Below are positions 49,428 through 64,000 of a DNA stretch of 64,000 bases, one piece after another. Under the pieces are notes generated by a model that searched no databases, had not been told where the DNA came from, and saw nothing but the letters and a program-made list of their open reading frames with translations. This DNA is from Microgenomates group bacterium ADurb.Bin219 (lineage in GTDB: Bacteria > Patescibacteriota > Microgenomatia > UM-FILTER-40-11): contig MWCH01000002.1 in assembly GCA_002069945.1 (NCBI GenBank), positions 79,164 to 143,163 on the forward strand. Reading direction: 5' to 3'. Made by a program: the position numbers and the translations under genes. Each line of letters opens with the position of its first letter. Positions within the stretch are counted from its first letter, which is position 1.

Positions 49428-49800
49428 GGGGATGACAGGCTTCGACGGAAAGCGCTCTTTTAAAACGGCAAGCCCCCGTTGATTCATCGGGGCTAAACAG
49501 GATCAAAAAATAAAAGTCAACGATACTGTTGATTCCGCAGTCAGCGAGAAATTCGCTGTCAATTACGCATTCGCGTAAACGGCATTCGGTGGGTTTTTTC
49601 TCAACGGAACCTTCCGGGTGTAAACAAAGTTGAGACGTAACCCCGGCGTTTGATTTCACCGGCGGGGCCAAAGATAAAAAAATCTAGCCCGGACTTTCTC
49701 GCCGATTGGATCAGGTTCGGGTGAAAAAATAAATTTCGGCTAAGCTTGTAGAAGTTTTAGAAAAGTCTTTTCGGATCCCGGTTCAATCCCGGGCATCTCC
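49428..49800 (+). ncRNA. ssrA: tmRNA (ssrA), standard one-piece form, directly after smpB
   Basis: 5' GGGGATGACAGGCTTCGACG pairs with 3' CATCTCC as a tRNA-Ala-like acceptor stem including the G3:U wobble; T-arm GGTTCAATCCCGG; candidate tag ORF ...GCAGTCAGCGAGAAATTCGCTGTCAATTACGCATTCGCGTAA (AVSEKFAVNYAFA*). Confidence 0.8.
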
Positions 49801-49959
49801 ACTTTGACTCGCCCTTCGCCATGACTCAAGGCTCGCTTGGTGTAAACACTTTGTCCGGATATAAATATATAAGGGGGTAGAACAAGCGAGTCGAAACCCT
49901 GGGTGAAGTCGAAGGGCTTTCGTCTTAGTTAAGTGTAAAAACAACGAGAGGATAAAAGT

Positions 49960-50250
49960 GTGGTTAACTTGGCAAACAAAAAAGCCATTTCTGTTCAAAG
50001 CCCATGGTTTACTTATATTCTTCTTTGTAAAGACAATTGTTTTTACGTTGGTATTACAAATAACCTTTTCAATAGAGTTAAAAAACATAATTTGGGAAAA
50101 GGGAGTAAATACATTGTTCCTTCAAAAAGACCCGTCAAATTAGTTTATTCTGAAAAACATTTTACAAAATCAGAAGCGAGAAAAAGAGAAATTCAGCTTA
50201 AAAAATGGACAAAAAAGAAAAAAATTTTGTTGGTTGAAGGGAAGTTGTGA
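49960..50250 (+). CDS. GIY-YIG nuclease family protein (UPF0213-like)
   Basis: WFTYILLCKDNCFYVGITNNLFNRVKKHN ... ARKREIQLKKW matches the GIY-YIG core. Confidence 0.7.
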   Translation: MVNLANKKAISVQSPWFTYILLCKDNCFYVGITNNLFNRVKKHNLGKGSKYIVPSKRPVKLVYSEKHFTKSEARKREIQLKKWTKKKKILLVEGKL

Positions 50251-50948
50251 CCGTTATTGATTTTCTTTTTCCCAAAAAATGTTTAGGTTGCCCCAATGAA
50301 GGCAATTATTTTTGTTCTTCCTGTCGTTCAAAAATTAAATCAATAGACCGGTTGGTTTGTCCGGTATGCGAGAACCCTTCGCCTTTCGGTAAAACCCATT
50401 TTTCCTGCCGTTCCCGATATGGTTTTAACGGATTGATTTCCTTTTTTGCCTACGAGGGGATTATCCGCGAAGCGATTCATCAATTGAAATTTAAATATGT
50501 TACCGATTTGGCTGATGAGTTTTTTGAAATATTATTGAAGATTTGGAATGAAGATAAAGACAACCGCTTTCTTCAAATAAAGCGGTTTATTAAAGAAAAA
50601 AATCCGGTTCTGGTTGCCGTTCCCTTGTTTTGGTATAAGGAAAACCAGCGTGGTTTTAACCAGGCGGAAATATTTGCCGAAAAATTTGCTCAATTATGGA
50701 GTTTGGAATTTAAAAAAGATTATTTGATTCGTTCTAAATTTACTCCTCCCCAGGCCGGCTTAACGCAAGAACAAAGAAAGAAAAACATAGAGGATGTCTT
50801 TTCTCTTAATTACAATATCCAATCTCCAATCTCTAATATCATCTTGGTTGACGATATCTGGACCACCGGCGCAACCTTAAAAACCTGCGGCGCTATTCTT
50901 AAAAAATCGGGAATAAAAAAGGTTTGGGGTTTAACGATAGCCAGGTGA
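50247..50948 (+). CDS. comFC: ComF family protein (ComFC-type phosphoribosyltransferase-fold)
   Basis: N-terminal double CxxC zinc-finger (CLGCP ... CSSC ... CPVC ... HFSC) and C-terminal PRTase motif ILVDDIWTTGATL. Confidence 0.75.
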   Translation: MTVIDFLFPKKCLGCPNEGNYFCSSCRSKIKSIDRLVCPVCENPSPFGKTHFSCRSRYGFNGLISFFAYEGIIREAIHQLKFKYVTDLADEFFEILLKIWNEDKDNRFLQIKRFIKEKNPVLVAVPLFWYKENQRGFNQAEIFAEKFAQLWSLEFKKDYLIRSKFTPPQAGLTQEQRKKNIEDVFSLNYNIQSPISNIILVDDIWTTGATLKTCGAILKKSGIKKVWGLTIAR

Positions 50949-50984
50949 AAAGAAGGTCAATTTTTGATAAAATTAGACCCGCAA

Positions 50985-51069
50985 GGAGGGTATCCCGAAC
51001 GGTTGAGGGAATGGTTTGCTAAACCATGGCCGCGAAAGTGGTCGGTGGGTTCGACTCCCACACCCTCCG
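50985..51069 (+). tRNA. tRNA-Ser (anticodon GCT), class II with long variable arm
   Basis: Acceptor GGAGGGT/ACCCTCC, anticodon stem ATGGT/ACCAT with loop TTGCTAA, T-arm GGTGGGTTCGACTCCCAC; position 8 is A (atypical). Confidence 0.7.
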
Positions 51070-51100
51070 CCTTCGGCGGATGCAGTCCGCTATAATTCAA

Positions 51101-51187
51101 GGAGAGGTGCTAGAGTGGTTGAATAGGTCGGTCTTGAAAACCGATATAGCCGCAAGGTTATCGCGAGTTCGAATCTCGCCCTCTCCG
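51101..51187 (+). tRNA. tRNA-Ser (anticodon TGA), class II
   Basis: Acceptor GGAGAGG/CCTCTCC, anticodon stem TCGGT/ACCGA with loop CTTGAAA, T-arm GCGAGTTCGAATCTCGC. Confidence 0.8.
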
Positions 51188-51189
51188 CT

Positions 51190-51236
51190 TTCGCCCGCCA
51201 AAACTTTATGGCGGCGGCGACTGTTGATTTTATTTC
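51190..51236 (+). terminator. Probable rho-independent terminator after the tRNA-Ser pair
   Basis: GC-rich imperfect hairpin GCCCGCCA...TGGCGGCGGC followed by T-rich tract ttgattttatttcc. Confidence 0.3.
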
Positions 51237-51258
51237 CCCTTTCCGTTAGTCTTTAATT

Positions 51259-51900
51259 ATGCCCGAAGAAAATCTGCCCCCATCTCAATTAGAGGGAAAT
51301 CAAACCCCGGAATTATCCGATCCCGAGCCTCAGCCGATTGAAGTAATGGCGGTTCGTCAATTAAAAGTCCTTTTTGCTTGGAAGGCGGCGGTAAGACCCT
51401 TCAAGAAAAGAGATAAGGAATATTGGACAACCGTTTTTGCAATTCTTTTTTTGCTTGTTTTAATTTTGTTTTTCGTTAAAGAGTGGTTTTTGATCGCGGC
51501 GATAATTTCCTTGGCTTTTGTTTATTATGTTCTTTCTACTGTTCCGCCGGAGGAGATTGAATACCGGATTACCAATAAAGGAGTTGCTTTTGAAGATAAA
51601 AGCTATGATTGGGAATATCTTTGGCGTTTTTGGTTTTCCAACAAGTATGATCAAAGATTATTAAATATTGATACCCGGCTAAACCTTCCCGGCCGGTTGC
51701 TTTTTGTTATCAAAAAAGAAAACGAAAAACAGATTAAGGAAATTTTGGAAAAATATTTGCTTAACGAAGAAGCGCCGTTGACTTTCTTTGACAAGGCTTC
51801 GGCCTGGCTGGCCAAAAAAGTTCCTCTAGATTTAGAAGAGAAAGAGGAAAAAAAAGATCCTCCCTCGGGGCCAATTTTACCCACTTCTTCTCCGGCTTAA
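51259..51900 (+). CDS. Hypothetical two-TM membrane protein
   Basis: 213 aa; TMs TTVFAILFLLVLILFFV and FLIAAIISLAFVYYVL; lies between the two tRNA groups. Confidence 0.45.
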   Translation: MPEENLPPSQLEGNQTPELSDPEPQPIEVMAVRQLKVLFAWKAAVRPFKKRDKEYWTTVFAILFLLVLILFFVKEWFLIAAIISLAFVYYVLSTVPPEEIEYRITNKGVAFEDKSYDWEYLWRFWFSNKYDQRLLNIDTRLNLPGRLLFVIKKENEKQIKEILEKYLLNEEAPLTFFDKASAWLAKKVPLDLEEKEEKKDPPSGPILPTSSPA

Positions 51901-51974
51901 CTTTTGAACCTAAATTTTGGTATAATCTAGAGGTTTACCTGGAGTATCTCGACTTTTCTTAGTATAAGTTTGAT

Positions 51975-52049
51975 GTGCCTGTAGCTCAGATTGGATAGAG
52001 CGCAGCCCTGCGGAGGCTGAAGTCGGGCGTTCGAATCGCCCCAGGCACG
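51975..52049 (+). tRNA. tRNA-Arg (anticodon GCG)
   Basis: Acceptor GTGCCTG/CAGGCAC, D-arm GCTCAGATTGGATAGAGC, anticodon stem CAGCC/GGCTG with loop CTGCGGA, T-arm GGGCGTTCGAATCGCCC. Confidence 0.75.
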
Positions 52050-52056
52050 CATTATT

Positions 52057-52138
52057 GGAGGGTGGGCAGGACGGTAATGCGTTGGTTTCGAAAACCAATG
52101 TCCGTAAGGGCTAACAGGTTCGACTCCTGTACCCTCCG
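52057..52138 (+). tRNA. tRNA-Ser (anticodon CGA), class II
   Basis: Acceptor GGAGGGT/ACCCTCC, anticodon stem TTGGT/ACCAA with loop TTCGAAA, long variable arm, T-arm ACAGGTTCGACTCCTGT. Confidence 0.7.
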
Positions 52139-52248
52139 CACTTCGACTTGCATTCCTTTGCAGAGAGCAAGCCGTAAGTACAGTTTGAAGGGCGGCAAGT
52201 CTGGCTTGGCAAAGCCGAAGGATGGTTTACTCCGAACAAACGTGAGGA

Positions 52249-52322
52249 GCGCCCATAGTTTAACGGATAAAATGCTGGGTTCCGGACCCAGAGACTTGGG
52301 GGTTCAATTCCCTCTGGGCGCA
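52249..52322 (+). tRNA. tRNA-Arg (anticodon CCG)
   Basis: Acceptor GCGCCCA/TGGGCGC, anticodon stem CTGGG/CCCAG with loop TTCCGGA, T-loop TTCAATT. Confidence 0.7.
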
Positions 52323-52462
52323 CAAAAGATAGAGAGGAGAGGCCAGAGAACTGAGAAAAGTGTTTTTTTCTTTTACTCCTAATAAGACAGAAATTAACCA
52401 AGTCTCGCTTTTTGCTTCAAAAAAAGATAAAATTATGCTCTAAAGATCAATTTAGTTTACCC

Positions 52463-52552
52463 GGAGAGGTCGCATAGTGGTCGAGTGCACACGCTTGGAG
52501 AGCGTGCAGGGCCGAAAGGCTCTCGAGGGTTCGAATCCCTCTCTCTCCGCCA
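52463..52552 (+). tRNA. tRNA-Ser (anticodon GGA), class II, CCA encoded
   Basis: Acceptor GGAGAGG/TCTCTCC (one G:U), anticodon stem CACGC/GCGTG with loop TTGGAGA, long variable arm, T-arm GAGGGTTCGAATCCCTC, discriminator G + CCA. Confidence 0.8.
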
Positions 52553-59694: not shown

Positions 59695-59989
59695 TCCCCT
59701 GTAGCTCAATGGTAGAGCGGCTCCCTGTCGAAGAGTAGGCAGCTTCCCGAAGTAATTCGGGTTGAAAAATCTGGCTAATTCGGGGAAGTCCTGAATTTAT
59801 CGAAGGATAATCCCGAGCTAAATTCCGAACGCAATGAAGGACTCGTCCTGAGCTTGCTGAAGGATAAACGTGTAGAGACTATATACCAGAGTCCGATTTT
59901 AATCGGACATAAGATAGTCCAAACCTTTTGGTAACAAGAGGGCTTTTGTAAGGAGAAGGTTAGAGGTTCGAGTCCTCTCGGGGGAGCCA
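59695..59989 (+). tRNA. tRNA-Asn (anticodon GTT, tentative) interrupted by a 220 nt group I intron in the anticodon loop; CCA encoded
   Basis: Exon 1 TCCCCTGTAGCTCAATGGTAGAGCGGCTCCCTGT (59695-59728), exon 2 TAAGGAGAAGGTTAGAGGTTCGAGTCCTCTCGGGGGAGCCA (59949-59989); joined they give a cloverleaf with loop CTGTTAA and T-loop TTCGAGT; one G:A mismatch at 27:43. Confidence 0.65.
59729..59948 (+). ncRNA. Group I self-splicing intron (small, IC3-like) inside the tRNA
   Basis: Conserved core elements: P AATTCGGG(G), Q AATCCCGAGC, R GTAGAGACTATA, S AAGATAGTCC (R GACTA pairs S TAGTC to form P7); IGS GCAG can pair with exon end CTGT giving the U:G at the 5' splice site; intron ends in G. Confidence 0.7.
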
Positions 59990-61564
59990 GATGGGACGCA
60001 GAGGCAACAAAGCGTCCTTTTGTGTTGAATCGTCGGGATTTTTTGTTAGTTCGAATTTTCCATTTTCCAAGTCGTCAATTTTTTCCACTTTCGGACCATT
60101 TGTTTCTATCACTGCTTCGGAGAGTAATTTAAAGGTTTTACTGTAGGTGTAGCTGAGTTTTCCTTCATCAACTGTTAAGGACCCGAAGACAAAGCGGATT
60201 AACGATCTCTGTTCATCGATCATGTCCTTGCTCTTGGCTTCCAGATAAATTTCTTTGGCTCTTTGAGAGAGTTCATAAATGCTCATGCCTAAGTTTAAGA
60301 AGCCAGTGCTGGCATTAGCATGCTTTTTAATCGACCCGGTGATTTCGTCTTTCTCCTCTGAATACTGTTTAAACTTGCGGTTATAAAACTCGGGGGTGAT
60401 TTTCTCATCGAGCTTATCGTCGTAGAGTCTGTCCATTCGTTTCTGCACCGCTTCATAACGGGTGTTCAGCTCGCCCATGGTGTCATTATGATATTCGACT
60501 TCGTCTTTGTGACTTTCCTTTAAGGCTTTACGGAGCCAGTCGGTAATCCGGGCGTTTTTGATACGAAGGTTTTCAAAGCCGCTAATAAGCTGAGATTCGA
60601 CCTCATCTTCTTTGACCCAGGTGGTCTGTGGGCATTCATGATAATGGTTACAATGGCCGTAAATGTATTGACCCTTAGCGATTTCGAAGGTAATGGAATT
60701 GTGGCACCCAGCGCATTTAATCAGTCCTCTAAAGAGAAAGTTGTGCTTGCGGTATTTGGGTGTAGTTCTGCTCGTTAGCATCGCCTGGACCTTATTAAAT
60801 TGCTCAACAGTAATCAATGGCTGGTGTTTACCTTCAAATAGTTCGTCGTTCCATTTGATTTTACCAATATAAAAAGGCTCACGGAGAAGGGAGTGGATCC
60901 GACTGTGTGGCAGCTTGTGTCCTAATTGGGATCTCATGCCTTCGGCGTACATTTTTTTGGAGAGCCGTTTAGTTGAGTAGTTGCCGGTGAGATAGAGTTC
61001 AAACATTTTCCTCACAAAAGGAGCGGTGTCCTCGTCGATGACATGGATTTTATGCCCAGTTTCGCCAATGGTCTTGTAACCGTTTGGTGGTTTGGTTGGT
61101 AGCCAGCCCTGGGCGATTTTCTCTTTCTGTCCTTTCTTAACGTTCTCTGATAATAGTCGTACATAATACTCGGCGGTAGCGACCTTTACTCGCCACATAA
61201 ACCATTCATGGGACCGGGAGGTGTTGTGGAGGATGCAGCCTTCTTTAGCCAAGTGGACCTGATGGGTTTCGTTCTCGGTAATCCAGAGATCAATCATGGG
61301 AACATCGGCAAAGTTCCTGGTCAGCCGGTCCGTAGTCTCAACAATAATGGTGGGGATATCGTGCTTGCGAACATAGGCCACCATCTCGATAAAGACTTTT
61401 CTCTGGGTTTTCCCAGCAGCCGATTCGGAAATGGCAAAGACTTTGGCTACTTCCAATCCTTGTTTCTCAGCATAATCGCGCAAGAACTTCTCCTGGGCTG
61501 GTAATGAGTAGCCCGTGTCTTCTTGTTCTTTGCTGCTGACTCGGCAGAAAATGGCAGTTTTCAT
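59960..61564 (-). CDS. Large serine recombinase (integrase), C-terminal codons overlap the tRNA 3' end
   Basis: N-terminal resolvase catalytic domain (IFCRVSSKEQ with catalytic Ser), recombinase domain, zinc ribbon CAGCHNSITF ... HCNHYHEC, coiled-coil; last 10 codons (WLPREDSNL*) are the reverse complement of tRNA exon 2. Confidence 0.85.
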   Translation of the reverse strand: MKTAIFCRVSSKEQEDTGYSLPAQEKFLRDYAEKQGLEVAKVFAISESAAGKTQRKVFIEMVAYVRKHDIPTIIVETTDRLTRNFADVPMIDLWITENETHQVHLAKEGCILHNTSRSHEWFMWRVKVATAEYYVRLLSENVKKGQKEKIAQGWLPTKPPNGYKTIGETGHKIHVIDEDTAPFVRKMFELYLTGNYSTKRLSKKMYAEGMRSQLGHKLPHSRIHSLLREPFYIGKIKWNDELFEGKHQPLITVEQFNKVQAMLTSRTTPKYRKHNFLFRGLIKCAGCHNSITFEIAKGQYIYGHCNHYHECPQTTWVKEDEVESQLISGFENLRIKNARITDWLRKALKESHKDEVEYHNDTMGELNTRYEAVQKRMDRLYDDKLDEKITPEFYNRKFKQYSEEKDEITGSIKKHANASTGFLNLGMSIYELSQRAKEIYLEAKSKDMIDEQRSLIRFVFGSLTVDEGKLSYTYSKTFKLLSEAVIETNGPKVEKIDDLENGKFELTKNPDDSTQKDALLPLRPIWLPREDSNL

Positions 61565-62331
61565 AGGCTTTGACCTGGCAACACAACATAAACGGAAACT
61601 CGAGCAATATCAAACAGAGAGAAGAAGGGTTCAAATCCGGTCGCATTTGGTCGCAATTGGTAGCATTCCTGGTGTAGCGTTGGTGTAACCTTGGTGTAGC
61701 CATAGGACACTCGTTTGTTGTGGGCTATAAGCGAGTGGGCAATAAATGAGAGGGGTTGGATGACTTGGATAATTGCTGGGTAAAAGGCTCGTAAATCCAC
61801 ACCAGTTTTACCCAAGAATTGCACAACCTTTAATGCCTGTAGATACCGAACCCACACCGAAACCTTGCCGAACCCTGTCATCAACATTTCACCGACAAAC
61901 CGCCGACTTATTTTTGTACCGATTTCATGCTGATTTTGTCCTGATTTATTCAGGTTGAAGTCCATATTTTCTGGGTAATCATTGGGTAACTCTTGGGAAA
62001 CCTTTTTCAGGCTAAATCTCTCATATTTTGGTGTAGGGTTGGTGTAGCTTCGGCGTAGCCTTTGACCGGTTATTTCTGGAGTAATATTGGAGTAAAGTTG
62101 GAGTAATTTATCTGTACTAATTTTGTACGAGCGTTGTCCTAATTTATCTCCAAAATCTGTCCAACTTTTGTCCAAGTATTGTCCAACCTCATTAGCCTTA
62201 AAAGCTGACCAACTTTTGACCAACAATTGACCAACCTTCATCCACATCTCATCCACCTTTTGTCCCACCTTAAAAGGTTCTTTTCCTAGCCAACTTTTAG
62301 CCAAGTTTCGGCCAACCTTGTTTTTCTTCAT
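61561..62331 (-). CDS. Doubtful ORF (256 codons) spanning a dense array of 10-12 bp phased DNA repeats; possibly non-coding or only partly coding
   Basis: Frame stays open largely because the repeat unit lacks stop codons in all minus-strand frames; protein shows irregular KSW/VGQ repeats that simply mirror the DNA repeats; stop overlaps integrase ATG. Confidence 0.25.
   Translation of the reverse strand: MKKNKVGRNLAKSWLGKEPFKVGQKVDEMWMKVGQLLVKSWSAFKANEVGQYLDKSWTDFGDKLGQRSYKISTDKLLQLYSNITPEITGQRLRRSYTNPTPKYERFSLKKVSQELPNDYPENMDFNLNKSGQNQHEIGTKISRRFVGEMLMTGFGKVSVWVRYLQALKVVQFLGKTGVDLRAFYPAIIQVIQPLSFIAHSLIAHNKRVSYGYTKVTPTLHQECYQLRPNATGFEPFFSLFDIARVSVYVVLPGQSL
61639..62320. repeat. Helically phased short direct repeats (iteron/centromere-like): several families at 10-12 bp spacing
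   Basis: GGTCGCATTT/GGTCGCAATT/GGTAGCATTCCT/GGTGTAGCGTT/GGTGTAACCTT/GGTGTAGCC (61639-61701); GGTGTAGGGTT/GGTGTAGCTTC/GGCGTAGCC (62030-62060); TGGAGTAATA/TGGAGTAAAG/TGGAGTAATT (62077-62107); at least 8 copies of TTG(T/A)CCAAC-like units (62150-62320), all at about 11 bp periodicity. Confidence 0.6.
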
Positions 62332-62360
62332 AGCGTTTTCGTTTTGTTAATTATTTTTCG

Positions 62361-62858
62361 TTAAAAACTCCTTCTAGTTAGTTTGTCGTCATCTCGCTTC
62401 TCGCGTATAACACCCGAGTCTATTAACTTAGTCTTGAATTCATCCCAACTACTCGTTTGTTGTTCACGACATACGGGATTTGAGGCGTGGGGAGCAAAGA
62501 TGGTGACGATTGCCTGGTTAAGCAAGTAGGAGTTATTAGCAAAGACATGGACCCCCTTCTTGTTCGTTTGTTTCTTCTTACTGATTTCGATGAGTGGTTT
62601 CCCTTCAAACCGTGCTTTGGCGAGAGAAGTAATTCGTCTGCTGACACTAGCTATACTGCCAAGGCCTAAAATCTGCTTGAGCTTGCTGAGGGAAGGGTGG
62701 CATTCGCCTTTATCATTGATGAATACTGCCAGAGCAGTGAAGGTATGCCATTGATCGGCGCTCACAGAGGCTAAGAGCCCCTTGAAAAAGATGGGGTTTC
62801 TCCAGAATTGGAGATACAAGTTTTCCGTTATTTCTTTTTGTTTCATTGACATATTCAT
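62361..62858 (-). CDS. Hypothetical protein of the integrated element
   Basis: 165 aa ORF with reasonable codon usage; no recognisable motifs. Confidence 0.4.
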   Translation of the reverse strand: MNMSMKQKEITENLYLQFWRNPIFFKGLLASVSADQWHTFTALAVFINDKGECHPSLSKLKQILGLGSIASVSRRITSLAKARFEGKPLIEISKKKQTNKKGVHVFANNSYLLNQAIVTIFAPHASNPVCREQQTSSWDEFKTKLIDSGVIREKRDDDKLTRRSF

Positions 62859-62884
62859 TTATTTGTTTCGGGCTTAAGCTACGT

Positions 62885-63034
62885 GCTGCTCTGTTTGGCT
62901 TCGATCTTCATCGCCGTTTCCGCAAAGCCAATCAAGACCAGGGCAACATCCAAGACTTCCTCTAGTTTTAGCTCTACGCCGTAGTCCTCTTTGAGAATCG
63001 CCCTGAGCTCGAGCAGGAGTTTCTGGCTTACCAT
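62885..63034 (-). CDS. Small hypothetical protein (49 aa), not in the ORF track
   Basis: Manual translation MVSQKLLLELRAILKEDYGVELKLEEVLDVALVLIGFAETAMKIEAKQSST*; start 1 nt after the stop of the upstream gene. Confidence 0.25.
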
Positions 63035-63291
63035 AGGCTCCTTTCGGCGTAGAGGCGCGATTTAATATCTCTTAACTGGTTAAAGAAAGTCTGGGGTGAG
63101 ATCTTGAGTTCGTTGCGAAAGTAGCCCTCAACGAGTTCTTCCAGTTCTGGGGATCGGAAGAAAACGAAGACGGCTTTGTGGGGATTGGACCGATCAATGT
63201 CTTGGATAGGAAACTGAAGGGAAATGGTAGTGGCTAAAGCTAAGTCACTGGTAACGTAAGTGTCGGAGTTTATTTGCTGATTCATAGTCAT
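63028..63291 (-). CDS. Hypothetical small protein of the integrated element
   Basis: 87 aa ORF; no recognisable motifs. Confidence 0.35.
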   Translation of the reverse strand: MTMNQQINSDTYVTSDLALATTISLQFPIQDIDRSNPHKAVFVFFRSPELEELVEGYFRNELKISPQTFFNQLRDIKSRLYAERSLW

Positions 63292-63488
63292 TTAATCGAA
63301 CTAGAATCAGTCTAGGAAAAAAGTTGTGTCCGTCTCAATAAACTTTGTGGTGATTTATGTTTACCTTTGTAAACAACGCGTATTATTTAAGTTGAGGTAT
63401 CTTGAAAAATAAATTGATTTGACAATCTCTTGTGAAGGAAGCTAACATCTCGACACGTTATTAGTTAGCCCTTGAGGAGTATAAAAAT

Positions 63489-64000
63489 ATGACAATGAAA
63501 ATAATTCAAAACAAACCCCTGGCTATTGCCTTCGTTTTCCTGGTATTACTTGGTTCTGCTTTCTGGCTGATTCAGCCTAAGACTCAGTCCGTTAAGGTTC
63601 AACAAGCCCAGGACCAAAAACTCCAACAAATTAAAGAGCTTACAGACCTGGCTAATAATGACCCTAAATATCGTGAGCATAACTCTCAAGCCAGCCGTGA
63701 ATTGTCTGACAAGCTCTGCTCTTTGACTGCTCGTTCTGCAGAAGAGCGGGAGAAAGCGGTGGCTGCTGTCCGTGATTTTCTGGAAATGCCCACAGTCAAT
63801 GTGAAGTATGAATGTAACGACGCTTTCTATAATCTGGAAGAGGACCGACTTATCGCTGCCAAGAGTGAAACCTACTTGGTAGATTCCACCTATTTTGTCG
63901 TGAATTCTGTAACAAACCATATCATGCAAGTGGATGAAACTCCTGGGACATGGGGATACAAAGCCGATGGCTCCCGTTGGTTTAGCGATCAGAAACAGTA
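63489..64000 (+). CDS. Partial CDS (N-terminal 170 codons) of a membrane-anchored/secreted hypothetical protein, running off the window end
   Basis: ATG at 63489 after AT-rich promoter-like region; N-terminal TM LAIAFVFLVLLGSAFWLI; open to the end of the window, so absent from the ORF track; the overlapping minus-strand ORF 63546-63929 is probably spurious. Confidence 0.4.
   Translation, partial: MTMKIIQNKPLAIAFVFLVLLGSAFWLIQPKTQSVKVQQAQDQKLQQIKELTDLANNDPKYREHNSQASRELSDKLCSLTARSAEEREKAVAAVRDFLEMPTVNVKYECNDAFYNLEEDRLIAAKSETYLVDSTYFVVNSVTNHIMQVDETPGTWGYKADGSRWFSDQKQ

Follow-up and report, generated by a model that had tools for sequence, protein, structure and literature searches.

The minus-strand open reading frame (ORF) directly upstream of a large serine recombinase (integrase) gene in Microgenomates group bacterium ADurb.Bin219 contains an array of short direct repeats with an 11-nt period, and this array can be regarded with high confidence as a nucleotide-level cis element lying within a frame-maintained, presumably translated integrase leader, that is, a dual-coded segment. 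It was studied in a 64,000-nucleotide stretch of contig MWCH01000002.1 (positions 79,164 to 143,163 of the forward strand), the whole of which is called the window hereafter. Purifying selection acts on the nucleotides of the repeated words but not on the spacers; the encoded amino acids are nearly unconstrained save for about 40 N-terminal residues, and stop codons are kept out of this frame in particular, up to the integrase start.

An initial annotation of this DNA described about 0.7 kb of direct repeats with a period of about 11 bp. Autocorrelation bears out the period, and more of the region proves to be periodic than was described. Across 61639-62320, bases 11 positions apart (lag 11) agree at a rate of 0.472, compared with 0.257 +/- 0.017 in shuffled sequences (z = 12.5); an echo appears at lag 22 (0.39), and in a sliding periodicity scan of the whole window the 13 highest scores all fell within 61600-62500, the sole such region. 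All repeat families listed in the annotation were recovered by Tandem Repeats Finder and a repeat finder, and additional triplets are seen at 61844-61873, 61878-61908, 61915-61946, 61972-62001, 62113-62142 and 62239-62268 when the sequence is laid out in rows of 11. The families therefore hold, but not as a random succession, since they come as sets of three in one 11-nt register. The array consists of at least 13 successive triplets, each spanning 33 nt, with three copies of a 7-9 nt word set 11 nt apart; each triplet has its own word and the next triplet has a different one. As the linkers between triplets are also about 11 nt long, a single register is kept over long runs, for instance 19, 8 and 44 units in the related locus L012. 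A stringent search for triplets (8-mers with at most one mismatch at a spacing of 10-12) returned five in the window, all inside the array, and none in three shuffles; in 18 related loci such triplets were likewise confined to the array, bar one AT-rich chance match. The features of the array are listed below, with words read on the minus strand.

61561-62331, minus strand: array ORF of 256 codons, carrying the entire repeat array; frame-maintained leader of the recombinase gene.
62287-62316, minus strand: triplet T1, TTGGCTA, first copy TTGGCCG; repeat-finder string of TAGCCAAC type, three copies.
62239-62268, minus strand: triplet T2, GTGGATG / GTGGGAC, with steps of 12 and 11 nt; from the rows-of-11 layout.
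62206-62235, minus strand: triplet T3, three copies of TTGGTCA; repeat-finder string TGACCAAC, three copies.
62158-62187, minus strand: triplet T4, three copies of TTGGACA; repeat-finder string TGTCCAAC, three copies, also found in the stringent search.
62113-62142, minus strand: triplet T5, degenerate (TAGGACA / CGTACAA / TAGTACA); GGTTACAA in most homologues.
62077-62107, minus strand: triplet T7/8, three copies of TTACTCCA; repeat-finder string TGGAGTAA, three copies, also found in the stringent search.
62029-62060, minus strand: triplet T9, three copies of CTAC(G/A)CC; repeat-finder string of TGGTGTAG type, three copies.
61972-62001, minus strand: triplet T10, three copies of TT(T/A)CCCA; from repeat finder and alignment.
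61915-61946, minus strand: triplet T11, three copies of AATC(A/G)G...; from repeat finder and alignment.
61878-61908, minus strand: triplet T13, GTCGG(C/T)G, third copy degenerate; from the rows-of-11 layout.
61844-61873, minus strand: triplet T14, three copies of TTCGG(C/T)(A/G); other loci have three copies of TTCGTCA here; also found in the stringent search.
61708-61737, minus strand: non-repeat segment with conserved nucleotides, containing a short inverted repeat (CACTCG...CGAGTG); covariation lends an RNA structure no support.
61670-61701, minus strand: triplet T17, three copies of (C/T)TACACCA, of the word family of T9; repeat-finder string TGGTGTAG, three copies, also found in the stringent search.
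61639-61667, minus strand: triplet T18, three copies of TGC(G/T)ACC in 10-nt steps; repeat-finder string of GGTCGCA type with a 10-bp step.
61561-61592, minus strand: conserved 3' end of the array ORF, whose TGA stop overlaps the recombinase ATG (ATGA, 61561-61564).

The 11-nt units carry about 20 distinct words, and a position matrix over them gives at most 0.58 bit per position, so that no common consensus emerges. The words belong to a TYGG-type and a CCA-type class, which are arranged in alternating blocks and resemble reverse complements of one degenerate motif (N4-CCAA); word classes in two orientations suit the recognition of double-stranded DNA. A certain grammar is also apparent, as AAGG usually precedes the first copy of a triplet and G(AA) comes after the third. 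T3 is constant, 4-fold degenerate sites included, in nearly all loci that bear it, the exception being L015 with two copies of TTGGACA. In some other triplets, two or three copies change together from one locus to another (e.g., TTCGGTG versus TTCGTCA), and covariation between column pairs of the array is higher at lags 11 and 22 than at other lags. Given mosaic triplets and some ambiguity of alignment, strict sameness of the word copies is not enforced. Outside the array, 219 kb of related loci show no notable enrichment of the words, leaving a role as dispersed operators unsupported.

The level at which this conservation acts was assessed from a codon alignment of the array ORF in 14 loci, with both flanking genes, those of the recombinase and of a winged-helix protein, compared from the same loci. 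Column entropy at codon positions 1, 2 and 3 is 0.32, 0.34 and 0.37 in the array ORF, as against 0.14, 0.07 and 0.69 in the recombinase gene and 0.33, 0.23 and 0.82 in the winged-helix gene, which has a classic coding signature. Mean pairwise identity is 84% for DNA and 72% for protein in the array ORF, 85% and 93% for the recombinase, and 78% and 79% for the winged-helix gene. At 4-fold degenerate sites mean entropy amounts to 0.24 in the array ORF, with 60% of these sites invariant, versus 0.82 in the recombinase gene and 1.02 in the winged-helix gene; the strong coding signature which, according to the initial annotation, would mark a bona fide repeat protein is therefore not seen in the homologues. 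The ratio of non-synonymous to synonymous variants (omega-like ratio) is 0.72 for the array ORF, 0.04 for the recombinase and 0.12 for the winged-helix gene. Within word columns this ratio is 0.75 and entropy is 0.15 at each codon position, and partly repeated columns, spacers included, reach about 0.64-0.73, near the neutral benchmark. Conservation thus tracks the 11-nt repeat rather than codons, and the 3-nt spacers drift. Flat codon-position entropy, frozen 4-fold sites and a high omega-like ratio indicate that protein-level selection is absent over most of the ORF, in line with the earlier view that the signal belongs to DNA or RNA and not to codon structure. In addition, an AlphaFold2 model of the product (54-sequence alignment) has a mean predicted local distance difference test score (pLDDT) of 45 and a predicted template modelling score of 0.28; pLDDT is below 50 for 200 of the 256 residues, and only a helical hairpin at residues 25-65 is predicted confidently, at 86-90. 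No Pfam, PHROG or NCBIfam family matched this product.

The ORF had been called dubious and was thought to be open mainly because the repeat unit lacks stop codons. This explanation fails, since the words are individually read in all three frames and the ORF frame is free of stops in all 14 loci, with 7-24 stops per locus in each of the other five frames. Among 303 variant alleles not one creates a stop in the ORF frame, against 11.7 expected, while the other two sense frames contain 17 and 13 stop-creating variants against 14.7 and 14.0 expected. The T1 copy whose frame would give GGC TAA reads GGC CGA in every locus, TTGGCCGA replacing TTGGCTAA. In 11 of 11 readable loci, as well as in the distant modules L020, L021 and L023, the array-ORF stop overlaps the recombinase start as ATGA.

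Homologues of the array-ORF product number 56 and come from metagenomes of the Candidate Phyla Radiation (CPR); the four with an organism name belong to Microgenomates, Roizmanbacteria, Woesebacteria and one metagenome-assembled genome labelled Gammaproteobacteria, which may be mis-binned. The family comprises 19 cluster representatives among 1.84 billion proteins, and no relatives were found in phage, plasmid and IMG/VR collections. Comparison with related elements, suggested in the initial annotation, proved informative: homologous loci retain the array, the word order and the position, and each has the lag-11 period confined to the ORF. Length varies from 82 to 310 codons with gain or loss of whole triplets, and such turnover of triplets as units, down to the 82-residue version, is as expected of redundant sites. 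Three near-identical contigs from different samples (L012-L014) share an identical array-ORF product and seven triplets at the same positions. In distant modules, whose winged-helix genes are 55-60% identical, the ORF has 131-147 codons, the ATGA overlap is kept and lag-11 identity is 0.38-0.48; the words TTGGTCA, CTTCTCCA and TTACTCCA are shared, and TTCACC, CTTCGG, GTCGGC and CTTATCCA are new. Separately, three predicted proteins (P0128, P0131 and P0132) in which VGQKLVRSWSE or ILGQYLDNTWT is repeated perfectly many times correspond to long perfect 11-nt satellites with T3 (TTGGTCA) and T4 (TTGGACA) words, and are probably an artefact of how the profile search selects sequences.

The array is embedded in an operon that ends at a tRNA gene, with the following features.

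59695-59989, plus strand: tRNA-Asn(GTT) gene with a group I intron (59729-59948, 220 nt; Rfam RF00028, 64.8 bits); integration site of the element.
59960-61564, minus strand: large serine recombinase, 534 aa; Pfam Resolvase, Recombinase and Zn_ribbon_recom; PHROG integrase.
62361-62858, minus strand: 165-aa winged-helix protein (HTH_36-like), directly upstream of the array; Pfam HTH_36 below cut-off; PHROG 12720 'DNA binding protein', E = 2e-17.
62879-63034, minus strand: 51-aa ORF of the same operon, position conserved; from the ORF list and related loci.
63028-63291, minus strand: DUF5659 protein of 87 aa, whose gene opens the conserved operon; Pfam PF18903, E = 8.8e-10; present in most related loci.

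The intron is inserted between anticodon positions 35 and 36, and ARAGORN calls the tRNA only after the exons are joined. The last 10 codons of the recombinase overlap the 3' 30 nt of the tRNA-Asn gene, which identifies this gene as the attachment site and places the array at the end of an integrated element extending past the right edge of the window. The tRNA abutting the recombinase gene is tRNA-Asn in L003 and L010 and tRNA-Gln in L005 and L016; no tRNA was called beside it in L011, L012, L015, L017 and L001. Homology between elements ends at ...RPIW/L of the recombinase, corresponding to ATCTGGCTC, which is complementary to the ...GAGCCA end of the tRNA. Related elements at different targets all share the junction ...GAGCCAGATGGG, and past ...RPIW the recombinase C-terminus varies with the host sequence. 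These junctions suggest that attachment specificity is relaxed or multi-target, centred on a tRNA-like ...GGGAGCCA end. Two kinds of mimicry by the words were considered and rejected. Mimicry of tRNA 3' ends by ...NCCA words does not hold, because the tRNA genes of the window mostly have no encoded CCA and their 3' ends are unlike the words, and matches of the words to the attachment core (GAGCCAGATGGG), judged by inspection, are 5-6 nt long and at chance level. Elsewhere in the window (49428-52552), a transfer-messenger RNA gene is followed by six tRNA genes (four Ser and two Arg), only one of which encodes CCA.

In 11 independently fetched loci the DUF5659 gene, the small ORF, the winged-helix gene, the array ORF and the recombinase gene form a conserved module, beyond which lie a divergently transcribed gene for a protein of about 260-300 aa and then variable cargo. 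On the cargo side (6-8 kb; L010-L018 and L019-L022) restriction-modification, AbiU2, RloB/AAA_21, OLD-like TOPRIM/AAA_15, GmrSD and SLFN_AlbA_2 genes and LexA-like repressors were identified. This composition suggests CPR integrative islands with defence-type cargo genes and a conserved five-gene integration module. The intergenic region between the DUF5659 operon and the divergent gene, which encodes a membrane-anchored protein (63292-63489), contains a palindrome (GTTTAC-CTTT-GTAAAC) and a promoter-like site (TTGACA-N18-TAACAT), and is likely the operator-promoter region of the module. In L015 a second large serine recombinase gene occurs about 5 kb from the first element (13.9-16.9 kb), beside a Phage_CRI-type rolling-circle initiator and a SpoVG-like gene; it may belong to a tandem integrated inovirus-like element. 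The 165-aa protein is modelled by AlphaFold2 (pLDDT 74) as one winged-helix domain plus a C-terminal helix, and a profile search of PDB sequences with it gave no match.

As to what the array does, the leading proposal, tentative, by analogy and with chances somewhat below even, is that it serves as a phased and redundant protein-binding platform over the integrase leader. Units in which a conserved core (about 8 bp) is followed by a free spacer (about 3 bp), arranged head-to-tail at one per helical turn and grouped in threes, resemble tandem winged-helix binding, and the platform is proposed on these grounds. The words would be binding sites on double-stranded DNA, occupied head-to-tail with one subunit per helical turn and in groups of three, and the 165-aa winged-helix protein encoded next to the array is the foremost candidate binder. 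The resulting nucleoprotein filament on the leader could control integrase expression, e.g., as a roadblock or by occlusion; alternatively, once the element is excised as a circle, the array might provide its origin or a site for handcuffing. The array ORF would be translated mainly to bring ribosomes to the integrase start through a presumed translational coupling and/or to keep a long leader translated.

Several known systems provide a frame for this proposal. In lambda Xis (X1-X1.5-X2), P2 Cox, OmpR/PhoB and SARP regulators, winged-helix subunits bind head-to-tail to repeats about 10-11 bp apart, often three of them; these sites combine a conserved core of about 7 bp with a free 3-4 bp spacer, share one motif, and lie in attachment-site arms or promoters of tyrosine-recombinase systems. 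The array is like them in its core and free spacer, in its threes and, as regards Xis and Cox, in its recombination-module setting, and unlike them in its length of 0.7 kb, its location inside an ORF about 1.6 kb from a serine-recombinase attachment site, and its many words. In the pMV158 family, the bind locus consists of three tandem 11-bp direct repeats bound by RepB, with repeat sequences that differ among plasmids. Exactly three tandem 11-bp repeats per unit are also found here; nevertheless, the array locus has no HUH/Rep_2 initiator or nick-site hairpin, and more than 12 different triplets are concatenated in it. The phage lambda origin lies within gene O, and theta-plasmid iteron origins such as RepE/F ori2 have iterons of 17-22 bp with one consensus, RepE placing two winged-helix domains on one iteron. 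Phased direct repeats in an ORF, loose amino-acid constraint and a winged-helix gene alongside are common to these origins and the array. In contrast to them, the array has 11-bp units in threes with about 20 words and adjoins a serine integrase gene instead of a replication gene, and no initiator C-terminal domain or replication genes were identified at its locus. In parC of plasmid R1, ten copies of one 11-bp iteron flank the promoter, followed by parM and parR, and the repeats are bound cooperatively and in helical phase by a small DNA-binding protein. Helically phased 11-bp direct repeats are shared with parC, whereas the array lacks a common iteron and no partition NTPase was found in the flanks of annotated related loci. 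Finally, Ohno's model holds that internally repetitious coding sequences arise from units not divisible by three, with repeats decaying under protein-level selection. As in that model, an 11-nt unit read over three frames yields an 11-residue period and multiples of three keep the frame; unlike it, the array conserves nucleotide words and its other frames are closed.

Such comparisons bear on four rival explanations. A genuine repeat protein of 11-residue (hendecad) amphipathic helices, whose 11-nt period reflects an origin by slippage and stays in frame only in multiples of three units, would account for a frame that is open and an ORF that is always present. Moreover, 33 nt make 11 codons, GTT, TTG and TGG read from one word place V, L or W every 3.67 residues, and the hairpin at residues 25-65 coincides with a lower omega-like ratio and with synonymous variation in the linkers of this segment. 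It is nevertheless rather improbable in view of the ratios found for the ORF overall and for the words and of the entropy being flat over codon positions: the 4-fold sites of the words are invariant where those of the neighbouring genes are saturated, and protein selection cannot freeze synonymous sites. In addition, pLDDT stays under 50 for some 80% of the residues, and whole modules are dispensable. About equally improbable is an RNA-level element, in which words on the mRNA leader would be bound single-stranded by an oligomeric RNA-binding protein or an RNA and tune the coupled translation of the integrase. The nucleotide-level constraint in a leader directly abutting the integrase start, the purine/A-rich spacers of the sense strand and the want of stable secondary structure, which would leave words accessible, agree with it. 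Folding of the whole leader gave z = -0.07 versus shuffles, and the consensus fold of the 3' part of the ORF reached -4.5 kcal/mol with 0 compensatory pairs. However, an Rfam scan of the array gave no match beyond chance and no structural signal was found, the reverse-complement-like word classes (TYGG-type and CCA-type) suit double-stranded DNA better, and 11 nt is the helical repeat of DNA.

The initial annotation favoured an iteron- or parC-like element. Its helical phasing stands and its membership does not, so that the label of iteron or centromere is a functional analogy. A classical iteron origin for a single protein or a type II (parC-like) partition centromere is quite improbable, even though 11-bp direct repeats in helical phase, the weak RepE-like fold matches of the neighbouring winged-helix gene product and the precedents of the lambda origin in gene O and the three 11-bp repeats of the pMV158 bind locus speak for it. 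A classical iteron array or a parC centromere is at odds with the want of a word consensus shared among triplets and of Par or Rep genes in the flanks of annotated related loci, and the plasmid, phage and IMG/VR collections also gave no relatives. DnaA-box-like 9-mers (at most two mismatches from TTATCCACA) are enriched in the locus of the window (8 versus 2.8 +/- 1.6) and in L023 (8 versus 1.6 +/- 1.2), but enrichment is absent or weak in L012 (6 versus 3.1), L010 (4 versus 2.6) and L020 (2 versus 1.5), and enrichment so weak and inconsistent speaks against a DnaA-box array. Very improbable, lastly, is a contingency switch, in which slipped-strand gain or loss of one 11-nt copy would shift the frame, truncate the leader and reversibly silence the coupled integrase. 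The unit is not divisible by three, copies are identical and adjoin an integrase gene, a need for identical copies would presumably freeze synonymous sites, and words occasionally switch in concert. Yet identity is limited to a 7-9-nt core, and differing, drifting spacers make a poor design for slippage, for which three copies are also few. No variant of +/-11 nt was seen: the 14 aligned loci that bear the ORF all keep the frame, with indels of whole modules, L012-L014 agree in array product and triplet positions, and the sole frameshift, in L002, is a 1-nt insertion. Slippage by 11 nt was rejected as its source, as the insertion is a single base in a long-read assembly.

The binding platform over a frame-maintained leader is itself opposed by several observations, which are gathered here. 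One sequence-specific binder is hard to square with about 20 different words that have no motif. In Foldseek searches of the PDB with the 165-aa protein, complexes of RepE54 and other Rep proteins with DNA are prominent among matches that are all weak (E >= 6e-3, TM score about 0.3), MarR and TFIIE also being matched. The search for ParR/ParM- or Rep-like genes advised in the initial annotation yielded nothing beyond these weak RepE-like matches, as no ParR, ParM, ParA, TubZ or Rep family is listed by Pfam annotation of the 6-8 kb to either side in the annotated related loci. Curvature, proposed there as another check, is unremarkable: A-tracts are not notably phased, AAA/TTT power at period 11 is nil, and the end-to-end ratio of a wedge model with approximate parameters is 0.91, versus a window median of 0.95. 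Residues 25-65 of the array ORF are under some protein-level constraint (omega-like ratio 0.35), which together with the confident hairpin means that part of the product may function itself. Regarding the open frame, loci were mostly found through predicted proteins, a bias to intact ORFs. Less biased loci, confirmed by tblastn or reached via the neighbouring gene and checked in sequence, are in frame to the contig ends with the exceptions of L002 and L003; the array ORF of L003 contains a masked stretch, and in L002, a long-read genome, it is frameshifted by the inserted base. Since Shine-Dalgarno motifs precede only 5 of 43 genes in the source genome, their lack before the integrase gene is uninformative on coupling.

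No model proposed here accounts for the triplicate copies, the roughly 20 words, the two word classes, the grammar and the concerted changes. A further reading, unlikely as it stands, is that the array represents a kind of cis element associated with serine integrases that has not been described before, a modular 'lexicon' of words, each in three phased copies. Rather than by one DNA-binding domain of fixed specificity, it might be read by several readers, by an oligomer sensing shape or sameness, or by a nucleic-acid partner; it would control integration or excision of CPR islands and be kept translatable. No description of the array was found in the literature on DUF5659, on 11-bp repeats with serine recombinases and on CPR integrative elements.

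The array offers a clean case of two overlapping codes, in which the frame is selected just for openness and the nucleotides as phased words. Annotation pipelines label its ORF a hypothetical protein, and the family is liable to be misread as a fast-evolving repeat protein. Many words in three copies each match no known iteron, centromere or operator layout, and identifying their reader could bring to light a mode of DNA recognition that is new. Large serine recombinases are usually regarded as requiring no more than short attachment sites plus a directionality factor; a conserved array of 0.2-0.9 kb at the integrase gene of CPR elements points to a further layer of control in these as-yet-uncultured organisms.

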